From: a virus
Direction: 5' to 3' (one strand)
Virus record (IMG/VR): IMGVR_UViG_3300023174_000078
Location: 57,277 to 121,276 of that record
Length of the DNA stretch: 64,000 nt
Positions 11,497-57,466 of the stretch are shown here, piece after piece. How positions within the stretch are numbered: position 1 is the first letter of the stretch; every line of letters starts with the position of its first letter. The notes under the pieces were generated by a model, which was not told where the DNA came from, did not search any database, and saw only the letters and a list, made by a program, of their open reading frames with translations. The translations under genes and the position numbers were made by a program.

Positions 11497-12081
11497 ATGG
11501 GTCTTTACGATGATGTCTCTGTACCGATTGAGTTATTAAAAGCACAGGAAGATGAGCGCATAAAGAAATATGCGGCGCTACTAACTGGTGTGAATGTAGA
11601 TTTTCAAACCAAAAGCCTAGACTGCTGCATGCAGGAGTATGTGCTTAAAAAAATTGAAGATAAGTATGTGCTGCATAAAGAAAATGTTGAACGTGAGTGC
11701 GTAGAGTCTCCCGATTCTAAGTCTATATTTAAGTTCCATTTCGTAGAGAAATCCAGAACCACTACCCCGGAGTTAATTACCGCCACGCTGTCAATGTGTG
11801 ATTACTACAATAGCGATACCTTAGATATTTTTATAGATTTGAAAATGGAATTGGTTGCTGGTGTGGTCACGAGCATCGTCTGTGCGCTGTATGAAGAACG
11901 CGATCCAGCACCACGACTTCAAAGGAATAAGGAGATGGTGCAGAAAATGAAAGAGAGCGCTATCTATTACAAAAGCTTTCGGGGTAGAGCTGCGATTGTT
12001 TTAAGACGCGCGTTGTTCGCTATTCACAAAAAGATAGATAAATGCAACGGTTGGTTACAAAGATTGGCTTTTAAATTATGA
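11497..12081 (+). CDS. Hypothetical phage protein
   Basis: MGLYD...FQTKSLDC motif. Confidence 0.65.
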   Translation: MGLYDDVSVPIELLKAQEDERIKKYAALLTGVNVDFQTKSLDCCMQEYVLKKIEDKYVLHKENVERECVESPDSKSIFKFHFVEKSRTTTPELITATLSMCDYYNSDTLDIFIDLKMELVAGVVTSIVCALYEERDPAPRLQRNKEMVQKMKESAIYYKSFRGRAAIVLRRALFAIHKKIDKCNGWLQRLAFKL

Positions 12082-12464
12082 ATATCATTTTTTTAGATGA
12101 TGACTTAAATCGTTGGAAGAGTTTTCGTTCCAAGGTGCCGCAGGCTGTACATGTAGAGACAGCTGCGGCGTGCATTAAACTTATCAAAGACACACCTGTC
12201 ATTGATTGGTTATTTCTAGATCATGATTTAGGCGGTGAAGCTTATGTGAAATCTTATCGCGAAGATTGTGGTATGGAAGTTGTGCGTTATTTGTGTGCGG
12301 AAAATCGCAACCAAACTATACATAATATTGTTGTACATTCGCATAACGCCCCAGCCGCGCAGGAGATGTTTAATAAGTTACAAGATGCTGGCTATAAAAC
12401 GCAGCTATTGCCGTTTTATAGTTTAGTTGACGCAATATCTGTAAATCTTGATGCTACGACTTGA
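12078..12464 (+). CDS. Divergent receiver-like domain protein (cyclic-phosphate-processing REC type)
   Basis: IFLDDD..R, LDHDLG, VHSHN motifs. Confidence 0.7.
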   Translation: MNIIFLDDDLNRWKSFRSKVPQAVHVETAAACIKLIKDTPVIDWLFLDHDLGGEAYVKSYREDCGMEVVRYLCAENRNQTIHNIVVHSHNAPAAQEMFNKLQDAGYKTQLLPFYSLVDAISVNLDATT

Positions 12465-13150: not shown

Positions 13151-13417
13151 ATGGGTAAGTATATCAATCATACTCAAAATGGGCCGCTTCAGCAGAAACA
13201 CAAAGCGGCAGAATTGAATAAGGCAGGTGCAGAACTTCTGTTAGACACGCCTACAACGTGGGAAGAAGGACTGATCTGCGTGGTGAGTAATGGTATATTC
13301 GAAGCGGCGGCGTATGTCCAGGATGCCCGGGATCTCGAAGATTTCTCTGAGTTCGTGTGGGACACCAGGCCGCGTGTATGGCTCAAATGGGATAGGGCTA
13401 AAGAGTTCGCTAAATGA
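13151..13417 (+). CDS. Hypothetical phage protein
   Basis: MGKYIN, VVSNG.FEAAAY, DTRPR.W motifs. Confidence 0.65.
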   Translation: MGKYINHTQNGPLQQKHKAAELNKAGAELLLDTPTTWEEGLICVVSNGIFEAAAYVQDARDLEDFSEFVWDTRPRVWLKWDRAKEFAK

Positions 13418-13989
13418 ACATCTTCGCAATTTACAGATGCCCGGTCACGTCGGCCCGGCATCTTGTAGATTCCCATGTCGTGAAAATGGTATTGGAATCT
13501 GCGCAGATGCTAGCTAATTGCTTTACGCCAGAACAACTTGCTGGTGCTGACTGTCCCAGAACGAAGGCAGGCACAGTACGCAAATATTCATATTACAATC
13601 ATCCATGTAGTAAATGGGTGCGCGTGTCGCAAGAGAATATGCGCTGGTTATGTCGACATGCGCTGGCTATGGACGTTGAAAGAATTCAACGCTCAACAAT
13701 CAGAATACAAGAACAACGACAATTAAGAGACCGTGGCTTACCGTATAGTGAAGCGATAGCGAACAGCACACCTGTTCCGCATCACAGCATTTCTTTTATT
13801 AATTGGGTAGTCGCTAATTTTCCGCGCAGTCTAATACCTGAAGGACCTTTGACAGAATTTGCACAGGCTATGCCAGATGAATTCAAATGTGCAGATTCTG
13901 TTCAAGCCTACCGCAACCTTTATACGATAGGTAAAAAACATTTACATATATGGACGCGCAACAAACCTGACTGGATTAACCTATGCTAG
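13414..13989 (+). CDS. Pyrimidine-dimer DNA glycosylase / endonuclease V-like protein
   Basis: MNIF...D.HVVKMVLESAQML...NHPC..W...QAMPD...AYR. Confidence 0.8.
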   Translation: MNIFAIYRCPVTSARHLVDSHVVKMVLESAQMLANCFTPEQLAGADCPRTKAGTVRKYSYYNHPCSKWVRVSQENMRWLCRHALAMDVERIQRSTIRIQEQRQLRDRGLPYSEAIANSTPVPHHSISFINWVVANFPRSLIPEGPLTEFAQAMPDEFKCADSVQAYRNLYTIGKKHLHIWTRNKPDWINLC

Positions 13990-14028
13990 ACCTTAATGAT
14001 AGTTCACCCCTACTGCCCCGGCGTTTAA

Positions 14029-14241
14029 ATGAAACGATCACTTAATAATTCTGTCTGGCATTCTGTCCGTAATTCTGTCAATGAGTCTGTCCGTAATTCT
14101 GTCAGAAATTCTGCCCTGTATTCTGTCTGGGATTCTGTCTATAATTCTGTCTGGGATTCTGTCCGTAATTCTGTCAGTGGTTCTGTCTATAATTCTGTGT
14201 GGCATTCTGTCAGTAATAAAATAAATGAAACGATCACTTAA
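14029..14241 (+). CDS. SVxx-repeat mini-protein 1 (14 repeats)
   Basis: MKRSLNN-(SVxx)14-KINETIT. Confidence 0.75.
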   Translation: MKRSLNNSVWHSVRNSVNESVRNSVRNSALYSVWDSVYNSVWDSVRNSVSGSVYNSVWHSVSNKINETIT

Positions 14242-14389
14242 TAATTCTGTCTGGCATTCTGTCCGTGATTCTGTCAGTGATTCTGTCTATAATTCTGTCT
14301 GGGATTCTGTCCGTAATTCTGTCAGTGGTTCTGTCTATAATTCTGTGTGGCATTCTGTCAGTAATAAAATAAATGAAACGATCACTTAA
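14225..14389 (+). CDS. SVxx-repeat mini-protein 2 (10 repeats, 54 aa; absent from the ORF track)
   Basis: Manual translation MKRSLNNSVWHSVRDSVSDSVYNSVWDSVRNSVSGSVYNSVWHSVSNKINETIT. Confidence 0.75.
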   Translation: MKRSLNNSVWHSVRDSVSDSVYNSVWDSVRNSVSGSVYNSVWHSVSNKINETIT

Positions 14390-14561
14390 TAATTCTGTCT
14401 GGCATTCTGTCCGTGATTCTGTCAGTGATTCTGTCTGGGATTCTGTCTATAATTCTGTCTGGAATTCTGTCAGTGGTTCTGTCAGGGATTCTGTCTATAA
14501 TCCTGTCAATGAGTCTGTCAGAGATTCTGTCAGTAATAAAATAAATGAAACAAGCACTTAA
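14373..14561 (+). CDS. SVxx-repeat mini-protein 3 (12 repeats)
   Basis: Same architecture, 17-nt overlap with neighbours. Confidence 0.75.
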   Translation: MKRSLNNSVWHSVRDSVSDSVWDSVYNSVWNSVSGSVRDSVYNPVNESVRDSVSNKINETST

Positions 14562-14733
14562 TAATTCTGTCCATAGTTTTGTCAGTGATTCTGTCTTTAG
14601 TTCTGTCCGTAATTCTGTCAGAGATTTTGTCAGTAATTCTGTCCGGTATTCTGTCAGTGATTCTGTCTGGGATTCTGTCTTTAATTCTGTCAATAATTCT
14701 GTCAGTAATAAAATAAATGAAACGATCACTTAG
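14545..14733 (+). CDS. SVxx-repeat mini-protein 4 (12 repeats)
   Basis: Same architecture. Confidence 0.75.
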   Translation: MKQALNNSVHSFVSDSVFSSVRNSVRDFVSNSVRYSVSDSVWDSVFNSVNNSVSNKINETIT

Positions 14734-14905
14734 TAGTTCTGTCCGTAGTTTTGTCAGTAATTCTGTCAGTAATTCTGTCAGTGGTTCTGTCTGGGATTCT
14801 GTCTGGCATTCTGTCCGGTATTCTGTCAGTGATTCTGTCTGGGATTCTGTCTTTAATTCTGTCAATGAGTCTGTCCGTAATAAAATAAATGAAACAATCA
14901 CTTAA
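14717..14905 (+). CDS. SVxx-repeat mini-protein 5 (12 repeats)
   Basis: Same architecture. Confidence 0.75.
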   Translation: MKRSLSSSVRSFVSNSVSNSVSGSVWDSVWHSVRYSVSDSVWDSVFNSVNESVRNKINETIT

Positions 14906-15089
14906 TAATTCTGTCAGTGGTTCTGTCTGGGATTCTGTCAGTAATTCTGTCAGTAATTCTGTCAATAATTCTGTCAGTGATTCTGTCAGTGGTTCTGTCT
15001 GGGATTCTGTCGGTGATTCTATCTGGGATTCTGTCTATGATTCTGTCCGTAATTCTGTCAGTAATAAAATAAATGAAACAATTACTTAA
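14889..15089 (+). CDS. SVxx-repeat mini-protein 6 (13 repeats)
   Basis: Same architecture. Confidence 0.75.
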   Translation: MKQSLNNSVSGSVWDSVSNSVSNSVNNSVSDSVSGSVWDSVGDSIWDSVYDSVRNSVSNKINETIT

Positions 15090-15309
15090 TAATTCTGTCG
15101 ATGATTCTGTCTGGGATTCTGTCAGTAATTCTGTCGACGATTCTGTCTGGGATTCTGTCTGGGATTCTGTCTTTAGTTCTGTCTGGAATTCTGTCTGGGA
15201 TTCTGTCCGTAATTCTGTCAGTGGTTCTGTCTATAATTCTGTGTGGCATTCTGTCCGTGATTCTGTCAGTAATTCTGTCCGTAATAAAATAAATGAAACA
15301 ATCACTTAA
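15073..15309 (+). CDS. SVxx-repeat mini-protein 7 (16 repeats)
   Basis: Same architecture. Confidence 0.75.
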   Translation: MKQLLNNSVDDSVWDSVSNSVDDSVWDSVWDSVFSSVWNSVWDSVRNSVSGSVYNSVWHSVRDSVSNSVRNKINETIT

Positions 15310-15541
15310 TAATTCTGTCAGCAATTCTGTCTGGAATTCTGTCCGTAATTCTGTCAGTGGTTCTGTCTATAATTCTATCAGTGATTCTGTCCGGTATCCT
15401 GTCAGTAATTCTATCAGTGATTCTGTCCGGTATCCTGTCAGTAATTCTGTCAATGATTCTGTCTGGTATTCTGTCTGGGATTCTGTCCGTAGTTTTGTCA
15501 GTAGTTTTGTCAGTAATAAAATAAATGAAACAATCATTTAG
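15293..15541 (+). CDS. SVxx-repeat mini-protein 8 (17 repeats)
   Basis: Same architecture; internal 36-bp duplication (SISD SVRY PVSN x2). Confidence 0.75.
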   Translation: MKQSLNNSVSNSVWNSVRNSVSGSVYNSISDSVRYPVSNSISDSVRYPVSNSVNDSVWYSVWDSVRSFVSSFVSNKINETII

Positions 15542-15773
15542 TGATTCTGTCTGGGATTCTGTCAATAATTCCGTCCGTGATTCTGTCCGTAATTCTGTCC
15601 GTGGTTCTGCATATAATTATGTCGGTGATTCTGTCTGGCATTCTGTCTGGCATTCTGTCCGTGATTCTGTCCGTAGTTTTGTCTGGGATTCTGTCGGTGG
15701 TTTTGTCTGGGATCCTGTCAGTGATTCTGTCAATGAGTCTGTCCGTAATAAAATAAATGAAACAATCACTTAA
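15525..15773 (+). CDS. SVxx-repeat mini-protein 9 (17 repeats)
   Basis: Same architecture. Confidence 0.75.
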   Translation: MKQSFSDSVWDSVNNSVRDSVRNSVRGSAYNYVGDSVWHSVWHSVRDSVRSFVWDSVGGFVWDPVSDSVNESVRNKINETIT

Positions 15774-16017
15774 TAATTCTGTCAGTGGTTCTGTCTGGGA
15801 TTCTGTCAGTAATTCTGTCAGTAATTCTGTCAATAATTCTGTCAGTGATTCTGTCAGTGGTTCTGTCTGGGATTCTGTCTGTAATTCTGTCTGGGATTCT
15901 GTCTGGAATTTTGTCTATAATTCTGTCTGGAATTCTGTCAGTGGTTCTGTCAGGGATTCTGTCTGGCATTCTGTCTGGGCTTCTGTCAGTAATAAAATAA
16001 ATGAAACAATCACTTAA
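15757..16017 (+). CDS. SVxx-repeat mini-protein 10 (18 repeats)
   Basis: Same architecture. Confidence 0.75.
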   Translation: MKQSLNNSVSGSVWDSVSNSVSNSVNNSVSDSVSGSVWDSVCNSVWDSVWNFVYNSVWNSVSGSVRDSVWHSVWASVSNKINETIT

Positions 16018-16150
16018 TAATTCTGTCCATAGTTTTGTCAGAGATTCTGTCAGAGATTCTGTCTGGGATTCTGTCTGTCATTCTGTCTATAATTCTGTCC
16101 GTAATAAAATAAATGAAACTACACGATTACAAATTAGAACCTCAAAATGA
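16001..16150 (+). CDS. SVxx-repeat mini-protein 11 (7 repeats, 49 aa; absent from the ORF track)
   Basis: Manual translation MKQSLNNSVHSFVRDSVRDSVWDSVCHSVYNSVRNKINETTRLQIRTSK. Confidence 0.7.
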   Translation: MKQSLNNSVHSFVRDSVRDSVWDSVCHSVYNSVRNKINETTRLQIRTSK

Positions 16151-16541
16151 AACATTAGCTGTACTACGTAAACATGGTTTCAATTTGTCGCGCATGATTG
16201 CCTACAGCAAATCTACATACTTATCAATGCATCCGGAGCATCAAGTAGTGTTCAATGCCAATATTTTTACTCCGCAAGGTAAAGCTTGGTGGGGTGACTT
16301 GGATCTAACGAAAGATTCAGAAAATCTACAGCTTGCAGCTGCCGATATCGGTTCCACTTTATACGTGCTACGTGAATCGGATGGTCGCTTTGGCAATGAG
16401 CAGCGTACTGTGTCAGAATTAGAAAAATTAGCCGTCAAGAAATTTGAAGTTAAGTCAAAACAAAAAAAATCAATTCAAACATGTCTACAATCTTTAGCAT
16501 CCAAGGTAACACAATTTTTCTCCGCGACCCGGAGGCGATGA
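16113..16541 (+). CDS. Hypothetical phage protein, coupled to the array
   Basis: ATG sits in the same AATAAAATAAATGAAAC junction; SKSTY, FNANI, WWGDLDL, YVLRESDGRF motifs. Confidence 0.75.
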   Translation: MKLHDYKLEPQNETLAVLRKHGFNLSRMIAYSKSTYLSMHPEHQVVFNANIFTPQGKAWWGDLDLTKDSENLQLAAADIGSTLYVLRESDGRFGNEQRTVSELEKLAVKKFEVKSKQKKSIQTCLQSLASKVTQFFSATRRR

Positions 16542-17581
16542 ATTTCCACGATAAGCTTCCACCGGAAGTTTACGCGATTAAAGAGCACCCTATCACTGAG
16601 GAGTTGTTTTTAGATAAGATTGATTGTTTTAATATACCGCACAAGAGATACGGTAATAATGACAGGTACGCCCAACGTATCTTGAACAGCTTCAAGCTAC
16701 GCAATCAAGCGACCGGTGTTCTCTTGTGTGGGGAGAAGGGGTCCGGTAAGTCGCTACTTGCCAAAACTCTAGCCAATATCGCGCAAGCAGAGGGGTTGCC
16801 AGTTATCGTGGTTAACACACCACGCACTGGTGACGCTTTCTTCCAGCTTATTCAGCGGATTGAGCAGCCCGCTATTATTCTCTTTGATGAGTTCGAGAAG
16901 GTGTACGACTCAGACAAACAGAAAGAAGTTCTGACGCTGCTTGACGGCATCTATCCGTCCAATAAATTGTATGTCTTCACGGTCAACGATAAGTGGAAGC
17001 TGGATGTGAACATGCGCAACCGCCCCGGACGTATTTTCTATTCCATTGACTACAAAGGCATCGAAGAAAAGTTTATTCGTGAGTACTGCGAAGACAATTT
17101 GAATGATAAGTCGCAGGTCGACCATATCGTTCGTATCAACACACTGTTCAGTGCGTTTAATTTTGATATGCTGCAGGCTTTGGTTGAGGAAATGAATCGT
17201 TATAATGAAGATCCATTTGAGGCGATTCAGTTGCTGAATATCAAACCCGAGTACGAAGATGCCACAACCTTCACTACGTTTATTTCCGTCGATGGTACGC
17301 CTGATTCGCATATCACATGTGACCGGGACTTTAATGGTAAGCCTTTGGGCGACCGTGTGAAAATCTATTACCATAAGTATAGGCGTCTGGATATTTCCAA
17401 GGAACACTGTGATAACGAAGCCGACTGGCTGTCCGCTGAGTTTGTTCCAACGGATTTGGTTTCCGTCAGTAAGGACGGTAAAACTTTCTTGTTTAAGAAT
17501 AGCAAAGGCGAATCTGTTACGCTGCAAGCTAAAAAGAGTGATACCGCATTCGATTACCGCACTTTCGCTTACGCGAGCTAG
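16481..17581 (+). CDS. AAA+ ATPase
   Basis: Walker A GEKGSGKS, Walker B ILFDEFEK, LLDG, RPGR arginine finger. Confidence 0.9.
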   Translation: MSTIFSIQGNTIFLRDPEAMNFHDKLPPEVYAIKEHPITEELFLDKIDCFNIPHKRYGNNDRYAQRILNSFKLRNQATGVLLCGEKGSGKSLLAKTLANIAQAEGLPVIVVNTPRTGDAFFQLIQRIEQPAIILFDEFEKVYDSDKQKEVLTLLDGIYPSNKLYVFTVNDKWKLDVNMRNRPGRIFYSIDYKGIEEKFIREYCEDNLNDKSQVDHIVRINTLFSAFNFDMLQALVEEMNRYNEDPFEAIQLLNIKPEYEDATTFTTFISVDGTPDSHITCDRDFNGKPLGDRVKIYYHKYRRLDISKEHCDNEADWLSAEFVPTDLVSVSKDGKTFLFKNSKGESVTLQAKKSDTAFDYRTFAYAS

Positions 17582-17628
17582 TGTGCATTAAAAACAAATC
17601 AAACAAATTAAACAAAAGTCATACAATC

Positions 17629-18666
17629 ATGGACGCGAAACAGCAAAAAGAAAAGATCTCCGAACTCACTCCTGAGCAAAAGGCTAAGATGCCAGAATAT
17701 GTTAAGAAGTGGATTGCTATCGGCAACGACACTTCCCGGTTGAATTATGATCGTACTGTCGACATCATTCATGCGGTTCAGAAGCACATCCTGAAGAAAG
17801 AACCTACTCCGGTTTTGATCTTTGATAACCCCATGGAGGCCTGGGTAGCGTGTAACTATGCCGCACACGGTCACAAGGTTAATGAACTCAAGAACTGTGT
17901 GGAGGAGTTCTTCAGTGGAAAGAAACCCAAGTGGAAACTTGGTCAGTATGTTTCACCCTATCTCAATGGGTCATTCGCAGCACCAACGTTCGCCTTCTAC
18001 GACTTTTTCAAGTTCGAGTTGGGCGTTTCGTTTGACACTACCGGTACGCCAGTCGCAGCTGCGCAAGACAACAGCGCGCTTAGCGTGGATGAACTGTATG
18101 AGATCTGGAAGAGCACCACAGAGCTTGGACTGATCTATCCAATTCACGACGTCCAAGGTGCAGCACAGGATATGTGTATCGTGTCTCAAAAACCATCGCG
18201 GGTAAAAGTTAATGAAGCCGGTGTCGTACACTGCGATGGCGCTGTTGCCATTGAGTACGAGGGGCATGGCGATATCAAGATTTATGCGCTCAATGGTGTG
18301 ACTGTTCCTGATTGGTTGGCTTTGACGCCAGCCCAGAACATCCCCGTCGAGCGGATACACGAAATTAAAAATGCAGACATTAAAGCCGAGTTTGTTCGCA
18401 AGATCGGTGTTGAGCGTTTGCTTGACATGGGAAGCAAAGTGGACTCTTATGAGGCTCATTCTGATGAGTGGTGGCACAAGTCGCAATACGAGCTTTGGGA
18501 TATGCACAACCTGTTTCCTAATGTTGAGTACGCCCCACACCTCAAGATGCTGAATCAGACGACCAAAATCTGGCACGTTGAGGCTGTATCTCCTAGTTGC
18601 AGAACAATCGAAGATGCGTTGAAAGACCGGTATGGTCGCAATGTTGACATCATTGAAATCGCCTAA
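17629..18666 (+). CDS. DUF6745-like protein (ATG at 17629 preferred over GTG at 17581)
   Basis: LTPEQ...Y..KW..IG N-terminus; FYDFF; G.VHCDGAVAIEY...YALNGVTVP; I.NAD..AE..RKIG. Confidence 0.7.
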   Translation: MDAKQQKEKISELTPEQKAKMPEYVKKWIAIGNDTSRLNYDRTVDIIHAVQKHILKKEPTPVLIFDNPMEAWVACNYAAHGHKVNELKNCVEEFFSGKKPKWKLGQYVSPYLNGSFAAPTFAFYDFFKFELGVSFDTTGTPVAAAQDNSALSVDELYEIWKSTTELGLIYPIHDVQGAAQDMCIVSQKPSRVKVNEAGVVHCDGAVAIEYEGHGDIKIYALNGVTVPDWLALTPAQNIPVERIHEIKNADIKAEFVRKIGVERLLDMGSKVDSYEAHSDEWWHKSQYELWDMHNLFPNVEYAPHLKMLNQTTKIWHVEAVSPSCRTIEDALKDRYGRNVDIIEIA

Positions 18667-18676
18667 ATAAATTACG

Positions 18677-18700
18677 GGGCAATAAATAAACCTATTGCCC
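18677..18700 (+). promoter_or_regulatory. Intergenic hairpin
   Basis: GGGCAATA-N8-TATTGCCC. Confidence 0.35.
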
Positions 18701-18746
18701 TATTTAAAAAAACAAAGCACCGTAACACAAATCAGACGCTAACAAC

Positions 18747-19115
18747 ATGTCAAAATCCAAAGCAACCAAGTCCAAAGTCAATTCCAACGCCGCGCGCGCA
18801 ATCCTTCACGGCGAGTGCGGTATCGTACAATCCCCCATCCCCGAGGATGCCACCGCCGTCAAGATCAAGGACAACTGCTTGATCCTGGCCGACTCCGAAA
18901 CCACGGGTAACCACCACGTTCTCGACGTCTTGCCGGGCGTTGAAGTCCTGGAGAAGGAAGGGAAGCGTTTTATGCGCAATTCCGTCCCCGCCCAGGTCCG
19001 CTGCTTACACACGGACCGGCACGATGCCCTCGTCGTACCCCCCGGTGAATGGGAGTTCATCATCGCTCAGGAGTTCGACTACTTCGAAATGAGCAAGCGC
19101 AATGTCCGCGACTAA
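18747..19115 (+). CDS. His-motif beta-rich phage protein (ETTGNHH); probable partner of the DUF6745-like gene
   Basis: HGE, LADSETTGNHHVL, H..H..L.VPPG.W...Q.E.D.....R.VRD; visibly GC-rich codons. Confidence 0.7.
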   Translation: MSKSKATKSKVNSNAARAILHGECGIVQSPIPEDATAVKIKDNCLILADSETTGNHHVLDVLPGVEVLEKEGKRFMRNSVPAQVRCLHTDRHDALVVPPGEWEFIIAQEFDYFEMSKRNVRD

Positions 19116-19282
19116 GCTCCTGGACTCGCTCTTGCTCGAGCTTGAGGATACTTGGGGATATACCCGGGAAGAACTCAGTGATATTCAAGATAAGCTGCTA
19201 GTGTTTGCTAGCACTGTTTCTATTAGTACGACTATGTCCGAAGAAGTGCAGAAATTAGCTGAAGACTTATAATTGATTATGC

Positions 19283-20880: not shown

Positions 20881-20955
20881 GCCTTCGTAGCTCAGTGGTA
20901 GAGCGGCTACTTTGTAAGTAGCGGGTCGGGGGTTCGAATCCCTCCGCAGGCTCCA
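20881..20955 (+). tRNA. tRNA-Thr(UGU)
   Basis: GCTAC-TT-TGT-AA-GTAGC anticodon arm, GGTTCGAATCC T-arm, CCA end. Confidence 0.92.
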
Positions 20956-20956
20956 T

Positions 20957-21031
20957 GCTCCGGTAGCTCAATGGTAGAGCAGTACCCTTTTAAGGTATTT
21001 GTTGCAGGTTCGAGCCCTTCCCGGAGTACCA
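20957..21031 (+). tRNA. tRNA-Lys(UUU)
   Basis: GTACC-CT-TTT-AA-GGTAT anticodon arm, T-loop TTCGAGC, CCA end. Confidence 0.88.
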
Positions 21032-21074
21032 TTTTTCATTGGCGTATCGCCAAGAACAAAGTAGAGTAACATAT

Positions 21075-21149
21075 TCCCGGGTAGCTCAGCGGTAGAGCGA
21101 ACGGCTGTTAACCGTTAAGTCGTAGGTTCAAGCCCTACCCTGGGAGCCA
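21075..21149 (+). tRNA. tRNA-Asn(GUU)
   Basis: AACGG-CT-GTT-AA-CCGTT anticodon arm; TCCCGGG/CCTGGGA acceptor; G73, CCA. Confidence 0.92.
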
Positions 21150-49315: not shown

Positions 49316-49396
49316 GCGGGTATGCGCAGAGAGGCCGAATGCACCTGTGTTACATACAGGAAATCACCGTTGGTTCGAATCCAACTACCCGTACCA
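49316..49396 (+). tRNA. tRNA with UAC anticodon (Val), atypical body
   Basis: GCGGGTA/TACCCGT acceptor plus ACCA; CCTGT-GT-TAC-AT-ACAGG; GTTGG TTCGAAT CCAAC. Confidence 0.7.
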
Positions 49397-49411
49397 TTTT
49401 AGAATTACAAC

Positions 49412-49651
49412 ATGAGAAAACCCAAGTTGACATACATACATGTCAATCAGCATAAGATTCGCGCTAATAAAACTAAGGGCGCGAATGAACCTGTTATTAC
49501 CGTCAAGCAAGGTAGAAAAAATACATATTGCTACAGAGTAAAAATTCACGGACCTAGTGAAGTTGTTTACTCTGGAAACGATACTACTTTACTGGCTTGC
49601 GGTGCTAGAGTAGCTATCGTAACAGAAAGTGCAGTTGAGATTTTAGAGTAA
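49412..49651 (+). CDS. Conserved small phage protein
   Basis: IHVNQH.I..N...G..EPVITVK...I.GPS.VVY...CGARV. Confidence 0.7.
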   Translation: MRKPKLTYIHVNQHKIRANKTKGANEPVITVKQGRKNTYCYRVKIHGPSEVVYSGNDTTLLACGARVAIVTESAVEILE

Positions 49652-49699
49652 GTTTTTATTTAGCTTATACGGCGTACACAATCTTTTTGTAAAAACAAT

Positions 49700-50017
49700 A
49701 TGAGTAAAAAAACACAGACTGATATTAGCGAAATGGTGGCGGTCAATCGCGTAGGTTGGGAGGCTATCAGACATAAAGATGGTTGGTGGGTTGGTACTGA
49801 CAAAGGTGTAACTTGCTACGGCGATCACCAAATTGCCCGGATGGCCCTAACTATGATTTGGCAACGTGATGGTGGTGGTCCGCTAAAGTTTAAGATTGAA
49901 AAATATACACATGTAGCCGATAAGCAAGCAACGCCTGATTACGTGCCAAAATATGGCGCTGTTGAAGCTTTACGTAATTACGAGCGACGGAAGACACGTA
50001 CGCGCGTTAAATCATGA
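49700..50017 (+). CDS. Hypothetical protein
   Basis: ORF. Confidence 0.6.
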   Translation: MSKKTQTDISEMVAVNRVGWEAIRHKDGWWVGTDKGVTCYGDHQIARMALTMIWQRDGGGPLKFKIEKYTHVADKQATPDYVPKYGAVEALRNYERRKTRTRVKS

Positions 50018-50220
50018 TACATGAATTTAATAATCCTATTCTGGCGCATACGCCTCTCGGCGTAGGGTATGTTTGGTATGTGCGAGATACAGGCATGCAT
50101 GAAAATGATCAGTTCGCTGTTATTTTAAAAGATGGTGGTAAGATTGTGCACTTATTAAGTCATCAAATCCGAATTCATTCTAATAATACGTTTGACATTA
50201 CCAAAGACGAGTCTAATTGA
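50014..50220 (+). CDS. Small phage protein
   Basis: TPLG.G...N.TF motif; ATGA overlap. Confidence 0.6.
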   Translation: MIHEFNNPILAHTPLGVGYVWYVRDTGMHENDQFAVILKDGGKIVHLLSHQIRIHSNNTFDITKDESN

Positions 50221-50226
50221 TAATAT

Positions 50227-50314
50227 GGGAAGGTGGTAGAGCGGTTTATTGCACTGGTCTTGAAAACCGGAGTGCTGCAAGGCACCGTGGGTTCGAATCC
50301 CACCCTTCCCGCCA
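50227..50314 (+). tRNA. tRNA-Ser(UGA)
   Basis: CTGGT-CT-TGA-AA-ACCGG, long variable arm, G73, CCA. Confidence 0.93.
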
Positions 50315-50323
50315 ATTTTAAAT

Positions 50324-50399
50324 CACAGGGTGGACAAGTGGTTAAGTCGCTTGGCTCATAACCAAGAGATCGAGGGTTCGACTCCCTCCCCTGTAACCA
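50324..50399 (+). tRNA. tRNA-Met(CAU), initiator-like (C1:A72 mismatch)
   Basis: CTTGG-CT-CAT-AA-CCAAG; CACAGGG/CCCTGTA; ACCA. Confidence 0.88.
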
Positions 50400-57096: not shown

Positions 57097-57466
57097 TCCT
57101 TCTCCTGTAAAAAGAAAACAAGTTTTAGCGGGTTCGGCAGCAGCGCAGCCGTGGCGCGTACTTCTTCAAGTGCGCCCGAGTCTACTTGCGACTGACTTAG
57201 TTCCCGTAATTTATTATGTTAGAGGGCGCGTGGATGAGGTAGGTAACATTGCTTACTTAATGTGGAAACGCTGGGAGAAAAACGATATTGGTTTAGGCGA
57301 CCAGCAATATCCTGATATTGAAGAAAACGGAGTCATTGAGTGTATTGATGAGGACGACTTCAAGAAAGCTTACGCGGCGGCAAAAAAGTATAAGTTACCG
57401 CACGCAGTTGCTGGCGACCCAAAAAATCCTACTGTGTTTACATGTTTTAAACGTACTAATTTATAA
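56942..57466 (+). CDS. Hypothetical protein (start probably at MSNPS, 57089)
   Basis: ORF. Confidence 0.55.
   Translation: MKTRKIVLRNFTSVLICLVETWSFDLRMRDAPAKNKRSGVKGHIKLIKTMSNPSPVKRKQVLAGSAAAQPWRVLLQVRPSLLATDLVPVIYYVRGRVDEVGNIAYLMWKRWEKNDIGLGDQQYPDIEENGVIECIDEDDFKKAYAAAKKYKLPHAVAGDPKNPTVFTCFKRTNL

Follow-up and report, generated by a model that had tools for sequence, protein, structure and literature searches.

The one studied protein built in a similar way to those considered here is gp54 of mycobacteriophage Tweety, which, like gp57 of Che8 and gp51 of PMC, contains 15-48 tetrapeptide repeats between unique N- and C-terminal parts, with the first two residues of each repeat fixed and the last two variable (PMC2884959). 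Mutants escaping the Phrann gp29/gp30 defence change the number of repeats in gp54, which the authors describe as tunable counter-defence (review, PMC9262239). Tweety gp54 is the only phage protein with a tetrapeptide tract and a tested role found in the literature. Our literature search found nothing in print on DUF6745 proteins or on detached repeat arrays, and the only relevant papers on phage tetrapeptide repeats were those related to Tweety. The locus described here lies in a stretch of 64,000 nucleotides (nt) of viral DNA, positions 57,277 to 121,276 of IMG/VR record IMGVR_UViG_3300023174_000078 (hereafter the window). It comprises an array of mini-genes encoding Ser-Val-x-x tetrapeptide proteins, a gene for a DUF6745-like protein that lacks such repeats, and a gene for a small protein with conserved His motifs. 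Whereas the Tweety gp54 repeat is Ala-Ala-x-x, internal and single-copy, the repeats of the window form a detached, multi-gene array. No homology was detected between the two systems (hhalign probability 0.15% for gp54 against A1, our alignment of repeat-less DUF6745-like relatives; gp54 has no Pfam family), and Tweety gp54 is treated as an analogy rather than a family link. Its neighbour gp55 was likewise considered and rejected as a relative of the His-motif protein.

A true family link exists to DUF6745 proteins in which the tract is part of the gene. The fused proteins gp38 of the Mycobacterium abscessus prophage prophiGD102-1, P0228 and P0137 have in common with the window protein a KW..IG helix, an FYDF helix and a C-terminal H..GPA..Y..G..Y.LNG..VP domain (hhalign of A1 against gp38: probability 96.5%, E 7.5e-10), and the residues of the fused tracts match those of the mini-proteins in the window. 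The difference lies in the arrangement: gp38, annotated as a hypothetical protein, is fused with a Gln-Leu tract and fused forms in general carry 25-80 units within the gene, whereas the window has 11 separate mini-genes. The gene downstream of gp38, gp39, was compared with the His-motif protein and rejected as a relative. Microcystis phage Ma-LMM01 offers the opposite case, a repeat-less DUF6745 protein (gp174) adjoined by a relative of the His-motif protein (gp175; hhalign probability 98.9%, E 2.6e-17), both annotated as hypothetical. It differs from the window in that the partner lies upstream of gp174 and in that the segment replacing the tract is longer and unrelated. In this cultured cyanophage the pair (locus L176, 4006-5537) sits amid replication genes, and it could serve as a laboratory system.

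The DUF6745-like protein, its fused relatives and its partner

The original prediction, made by a model from the letters of the window alone, held that the gene downstream of the array encodes a DUF6745-related protein, and this is borne out by homologs and fold. The protein has 264 homologs. Its own PF20530 score, 19.4 bits (E 6.8e-4), stays below the gathering cut-off of 27 bits, but 36 of 40 aligned relatives, 46-82% identical, match the family at E <= 1e-3, the best at 1.5e-12. The AlphaFold2 (AF2) model has a predicted local distance difference test (pLDDT) score of 90.7, and its top Foldseek match in BFVD is a 'DUF6745 domain-containing protein' of Microcystis phage LMM01, the gp174 mentioned above (E 7.9e-16, probability 1.00, template modelling (TM) scores 0.50/0.46). 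No solved structure resembling the model was found at E <= 1e-3 with Foldseek against the PDB, the VIA wide search gave a best Z of 4.0 and no clear fold, and a PDB sequence-profile search with A1 returned a single chance-level row (E 0.01). The related loci were found with A1, the window protein alone as query having found none; a tblastn search with it against a cultured-phage collection yielded nothing at E <= 1e-5, unlike the fused query P0137, which reached 11 records of that collection.

The protein is also without an internal tract, again as had been claimed: none is present in the window copy or in any of 40 aligned close relatives, and in repeat-less copies the longest run of Val/Ile (V/I) at period 4 stays below 8. 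The tracts themselves were found by searching an 86-amino-acid (aa) mini-protein against longer proteins. This gave 739 matches, and among the 120 listed most are PF20530 proteins of 380-600 aa, in agreement with the statement in the original prediction that DUF6745 proteins often carry a tetrapeptide tract ahead of the FYDF region. Fused proteins contain, in order, a ..LT.EQ..KW..IG.. helix, 25-80 tetrapeptides, a ..FY.YF.. helix and the H..GPA..Y..G..Y.LNG..VP domain. The hidden Markov model (HMM) of A1 aligns to most of them in two pieces, positions 1 to ~65 before the tract and ~100-310 after it, with E down to 1.2e-87, and this places the tract at the site of residues ~80-113 in the window protein, which form a short helix and a loop. 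The fixed pair of the tract differs by lineage, with Ser-Val (SVxx), QVxx, NIxx, KVxx and QLxx all represented. Judged by sequence, the mini-genes are free-standing copies of the tract that is internal to the fused DUF6745 relatives.

Ser-Val-x-x tracts also occur in unrelated architectures (proteins P0147, P0187 and P0208; loci L119, L138 and L140), including proteins of 756-1943 aa. Those with a DUF7666-like N-domain share a C-terminal part with the motif ..KW.YIDH..G.NPF...

The constant companion of the DUF6745 gene is the His-motif gene, which adjoins it in 52 of the 53 viral loci encoding a relative; the original prediction had named such a neighbour, with a GE.TGH.H motif. In a count of all neighbours it is present in 57 of 64 loci at a median distance of 15 nt downstream, against 8 loci for the next best neighbour, and it stands beside fused and repeat-less DUF6745 genes alike. 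The window protein has the motifs ..SETTGNHH.. and ..RH.., and in alignment A2 of the partner (38 sequences) G22, H57, H92 and D122 are invariant. Its AF2 model is all-beta (pLDDT 87.8). The partner matched no Pfam family, no PDB sequence profile and, with Foldseek at E <= 1e-3, no PDB structure; the best Z in the VIA wide search was 3.0, with no clear fold, and ESM Atlas gave unnamed viral clusters only. A search for longer proteins containing the partner domain gave 14 matches and no recurrent fused domain. The conserved unit is thus made up of two genes, one for a DUF6745-family protein and one for a small His-motif beta protein.

Mini-gene arrays and their distribution

The mini-open reading frames (mini-ORFs) of the window encode proteins of 49-86 aa, in each of which 8-19 Ser-Val-x-x tetrapeptides are framed by an MK(R/Q)SLNN cap and an NKINETIT tail. 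Each starts 17 nt before the stop of the previous unit, in the next frame, and Tandem Repeats Finder (TRF) describes the array as ~159 copies of a 12-nt period. All 69 matches to the Ser-Val (SV) pattern in the whole 121-kb record lie inside the array, hence within 10 kb of the DUF6745 gene. In the arrays, N- and C-caps are conserved within each lineage and peculiar to it, and the start-stop junctions are regular. Between lineages Ser-Val is retained by differing synonymous codons, which indicates that selection acts at the protein level, and inside each lineage codon use is uniform, which indicates that arrays evolve in concert. In two near-identical contigs one mini-gene encodes 81 aa (L008, 16023-16268) and 77 aa (L009, 16023-16256), a difference of one tetrapeptide, and the length of the neighbouring unit differs too; the number of repeats therefore changes on a short time scale. 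Within 14038-16013 the array keeps two further frames open, a hydrophobic ..ILSV.. frame on the forward strand and a ..DRIT.. frame on the reverse strand, which look like by-products of the repeat and not like genes. A second, diverged cluster of ORFs lies further upstream in the window (Table 1). Six of these ORFs match A3, a profile of SV-type mini-proteins, with E-values between 1.6e-6 and 2.3e-4 when only the ORFs of the window are searched, and V/I runs of 5-7 at period 4 are present. The signal is weak, and the cluster may represent an earlier array of detached repeat genes that has since decayed.

The original prediction proposed testing whether repeat-less DUF6745 genes co-occur with arrays of this kind, and they do. 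When applied to 53 loci, a strict detector (at least 8 consecutive V/I at period 4 in an ORF of 35-170 aa on the same strand, with polar variable positions) picked out 158 mini-ORFs; residue-shuffled ORFs yielded 0.05 per replicate. Arrays, defined as at least 2 mini-ORFs, lie within 10 kb at 24 of 46 repeat-less loci, corresponding to 17 of 30 clusters at 90% identity. At fused loci there are none, neither in the same set (0/7) nor among further fused loci (0/9) from a pattern scan of viral contigs that gave at least 119 stretches, the loci having uneven flanks. A comparison of 17/30 with 0/7 by Fisher's test yields p = 0.009, with no correction for phylogeny. One apparent mini-ORF at the fused locus L052 proved to be an alternative frame of the fused tract and was discarded, as were three A3 matches in Tweety, alternative-frame artefacts located on the opposite strand to gene 54. 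The arrays beside repeat-less genes are of Ser-Val, Asn-Val, Lys/Glu-Val and Gln-Val type. Some precede the module, some separate its two genes and others directly follow one gene or the other; as they stay near the module while their position varies, the linkage outlasts rearrangement. Of the 667 SV-pattern matches in 15 whole records, 606 are no more than 10 kb from a DUF6745 gene (the scan left out L011, L013, L014 and L052-L054).

Phylogeny calls for more than one switch between fused and split forms. The tree, built from 48 C-terminal domains, has fused forms at its base and others inside the split clade; 4 changes are needed, at least 2 of them forced by well-supported branches. The fused Gln-Val protein of L039 is sister to the lineages with Gln-Val arrays (L035/L036; Shimodaira-Hasegawa-like approximate likelihood-ratio test (SH-aLRT) 89). 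An earlier tree, with Ser-Val fused forms only, required a single change.

How a detached mini-protein might meet the core was modelled by co-folding three chains, namely the DUF6745-like core, the His-motif partner and a mini-protein of 62 aa, with one alignment per chain. The ipSAE values of 0.52, 0.75 and 0.76 (median 0.75) compare with 0.01 for the best of 3 controls, the one among them in which the core was replaced scoring 0.00. Among solved complexes 58 of 80 attain this mark, as do 2 of 110 mismatched pairs; these counts apply only roughly here, since custom alignments and three chains were used. At least 56% of contacts are shared between runs, and the partner has a pLDDT of at least 68. 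All confident peptide contacts go to the core. In the contacts of lowest error, V33, V37, V41 and V45 of the peptide face core residues 21-32 and 118-126, which lie in the KW..IG and FYDF helices on either side of the tract of fused relatives; the near-invariant Y24, W28 and G32 are among these core residues. The helix of the mini-protein is thus predicted by the model to dock its valine stripe in a groove between the KW..IG and FYDF helices.

Gene order and neighbouring genes

The window makes up the right half of a viral record of 121 kb that is rated 67% complete, and 0.87 and 0.81 of the words sampled from the stretch are contained in two lake/freshwater sequencing runs. Its ORFs confirm the gene order given in the original prediction, in which the array runs without a break into a hypothetical gene, an AAA+ ATPase gene, the DUF6745-like gene and the ETTGNHH-motif gene (Table 1).

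Table 1 Features of the mini-gene locus and its surroundings in the window.
Feature	Position	Strand	Basis
Mini-gene array, 11 overlapping mini-ORFs	14029-16150	+	ORFs, TRF, SV-pattern scan
Hypothetical gene, 142 aa	16113-16541	+	ORF; junction shared with array units
AAA+ ATPase, 366 aa	16481-17581	+	PF00004; phrog_2376
Repeat-less DUF6745-like protein, 345 aa	17629-18666	+	Homologs, PF20530 in relatives, fold match
Alternative GTG start of DUF6745-like gene	17581	+	Sequence
His-motif (ETTGNHH) protein, 122 aa, all-beta	18747-19115	+	Adjacency, alignment, AF2
Second diverged ORF cluster, ORFs of 67-142 aa	5662-7500	+	Weak similarity to mini-protein profile A3

The ATPase matches PF00004 with 39.2 bits (cut-off 21.2) and phrog_2376, 'ATPase', at 3e-89, and its translation contains the Walker A-like GEKGSGKS and the Walker B-like ILFDEFE. 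The 142-aa gene matched neither Pfam nor PHROG. It starts at a junction sequence (16101-16125) shared with every array unit, like a last unit with a different body. Homologs of both genes were found only at L002/L161, two loci of a single contig that is the nearest relative (172 other loci compared), and 52 of the 53 DUF6745 loci are without them. As only one other contig has them, they are not part of the module but lineage-specific insertions between array and module. The block envisaged by the original prediction, which counted both genes among its members, accordingly shrinks to the two-gene unit described above.

Upstream of the array, on the same strand, are genes for a cyclic-phosphate-processing receiver domain protein (12078-12464; PF20274, 1.2e-17) and a pyrimidine-dimer glycosylase-like protein (13414-13989; PF03013 6.4e-6, phrog_624 1e-38), both of which are present in L002 too. 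Six tRNA genes on the forward strand form two groups, at 20881-21149 and 49316-50399, one for Thr, Lys and Asn and the other for Val, Ser and Met. No Shine-Dalgarno (SD)-like motif was seen upstream of window genes at ~50 starts examined, where leaders are A/T-rich. The A-rich leaders of the mini-genes are typical of this phage, and the SD-less leaders hint at a host that makes little use of SD sequences. A megablast search of 13400-19200 against the cultured-phage collection gave no match.

Origin and possible role of the detached repeats

The original prediction proposed that the variable repeat segment was split off from the DUF6745 gene and is now supplied in trans. This is the best-supported reading of the locus, and one towards which we lean with some reserve. 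Most DUF6745 members carry a long, fast-changing x-(V/I/L)-x-x tract between the Y..KW..IG helix and the FYDF helix. In the clade of the window phage this tract would have left the gene and persisted nearby as a tandem array of mini-genes. Each mini-protein would be a helix with a valine stripe packing between the same two conserved helices, and if each docks in the groove in this way, one core could take several variable surfaces, being loaded in trans with any of the alternatives that the array provides. The part of the proposal that concerns splitting stands on the homology at the tract site, the co-occurrence and the several switches between fused and split forms. Supply in trans is as yet a modelled binding, favoured by the co-fold with its controls, and the 13 of 30 repeat-less lineages that have no array in the DNA examined speak against an obligate link.

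Further points weigh against this proposal. The repeat-less pair is present, with neither an SV-pattern nor an A3-profile match, in three records of 230, 297 and 56 kb whose completeness is rated 100%, and Ma-LMM01 has the pair and no match to the SV-type A3 profile in its whole 162-kb genome; as A3 was built from the SV type, it may miss other types, which limits these negatives. Conversely, three independently found tandem arrays are in records without a DUF6745 match, these records being 23-48% complete. The same type of tract is also found with a DUF7666 N-domain, with DUF551, in proteins of up to 1943 aa and in giant-virus contigs, so that its use extends beyond DUF6745. At the tract site the repeat-less protein is conserved and well folded, and the missing tract thus leaves no gap in it. 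The binding is that of a single structure model, and amphipathic helices might fit easily into a groove of any kind, although the control with a replaced core scored 0.00. The internal assembly of the array is uncertain, and the four runs compared are DNA contigs, informative on assembly and not on expression.

Several of these observations would also fit a link by descent only, in which the mini-genes were born by fission of the tract and duplication and now act alone, without binding the core, possibly as decoys for a host factor that recognises the tract, a role that the original prediction had also raised. The occurrence of tetrapeptide tracts in several unrelated protein contexts, the arrays in records without DUF6745, the repeat-less pairs without arrays in complete genomes and a core that folds well in the absence of a peptide all favour such a history. 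Against it, arrays remain close to the module despite their changed relative position, none is present at any fused locus examined, and the co-fold passes its controls while using the most conserved N-terminal motifs of the family. We regard descent alone as unlikely, though it is the main rival. A machine of four parts, made up of the array, the AAA+ ATPase, the DUF6745 protein and the His-motif protein and with the ATPase loading or exchanging the peptides, is suggested by the contiguous and co-oriented genes in the window and in its nearest relative, L002. The restriction of the ATPase and the 142-aa gene to that one relative and the fact that, the His-motif gene apart, no neighbour recurs in more than 8 loci make it very improbable. 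It is harder still to credit that the array is non-coding, whether as a DNA-level repeat, an array of binding sites or an assembly artefact, with its open frames a by-product. The repeat is indeed open in all three frames of the forward type and in one reverse frame, codons are homogenised within lineages, and short-read assemblies of two other runs (X1 and X2; compared region 13400-16200) match the flanks exactly and fragment into pieces of ~100 nt at 14055 and 16012. Because these assemblies break at both edges, the order and number of array units are less certain than the flanks and may depend on the assembler. Yet the residue pattern is kept under differing synonymous codons across lineages and within bona fide proteins, the lineage-specific caps and regular start-stop junctions are conserved, and arrays recur in at least 17 independent lineages.

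If, as we prefer, the tract is supplied in trans, the arrangement could amount to a germline specificity library, in which one DUF6745/His-motif core with a fixed groove would be served by a dozen or more diversified helices, each tuned to a variant of a host defence or target. Recombination and slippage in the array would renew the repertoire, making it a multi-copy, in-trans version of the tuning of repeat number in Tweety gp54. Both the library and its renewal are put forward tentatively, as a doubtful extension of the preferred reading; the mini-proteins would have to be exchangeable on the core, and a role in phage-host conflict is suggested by the analogy with gp54.

DUF6745 is widespread in phages and prophages and has no known function, and its internal tract is among the most variable protein segments in these genomes. 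The clade-wide relocation of the tract, together with its predicted docking, makes the family testable, as it proposes a binding surface, natural ligands and the prediction of an exchangeable subunit. Should the analogy with Tweety gp54 hold, the detachment and diversification of such tracts may represent a common route by which phages retune a counter-defence protein.

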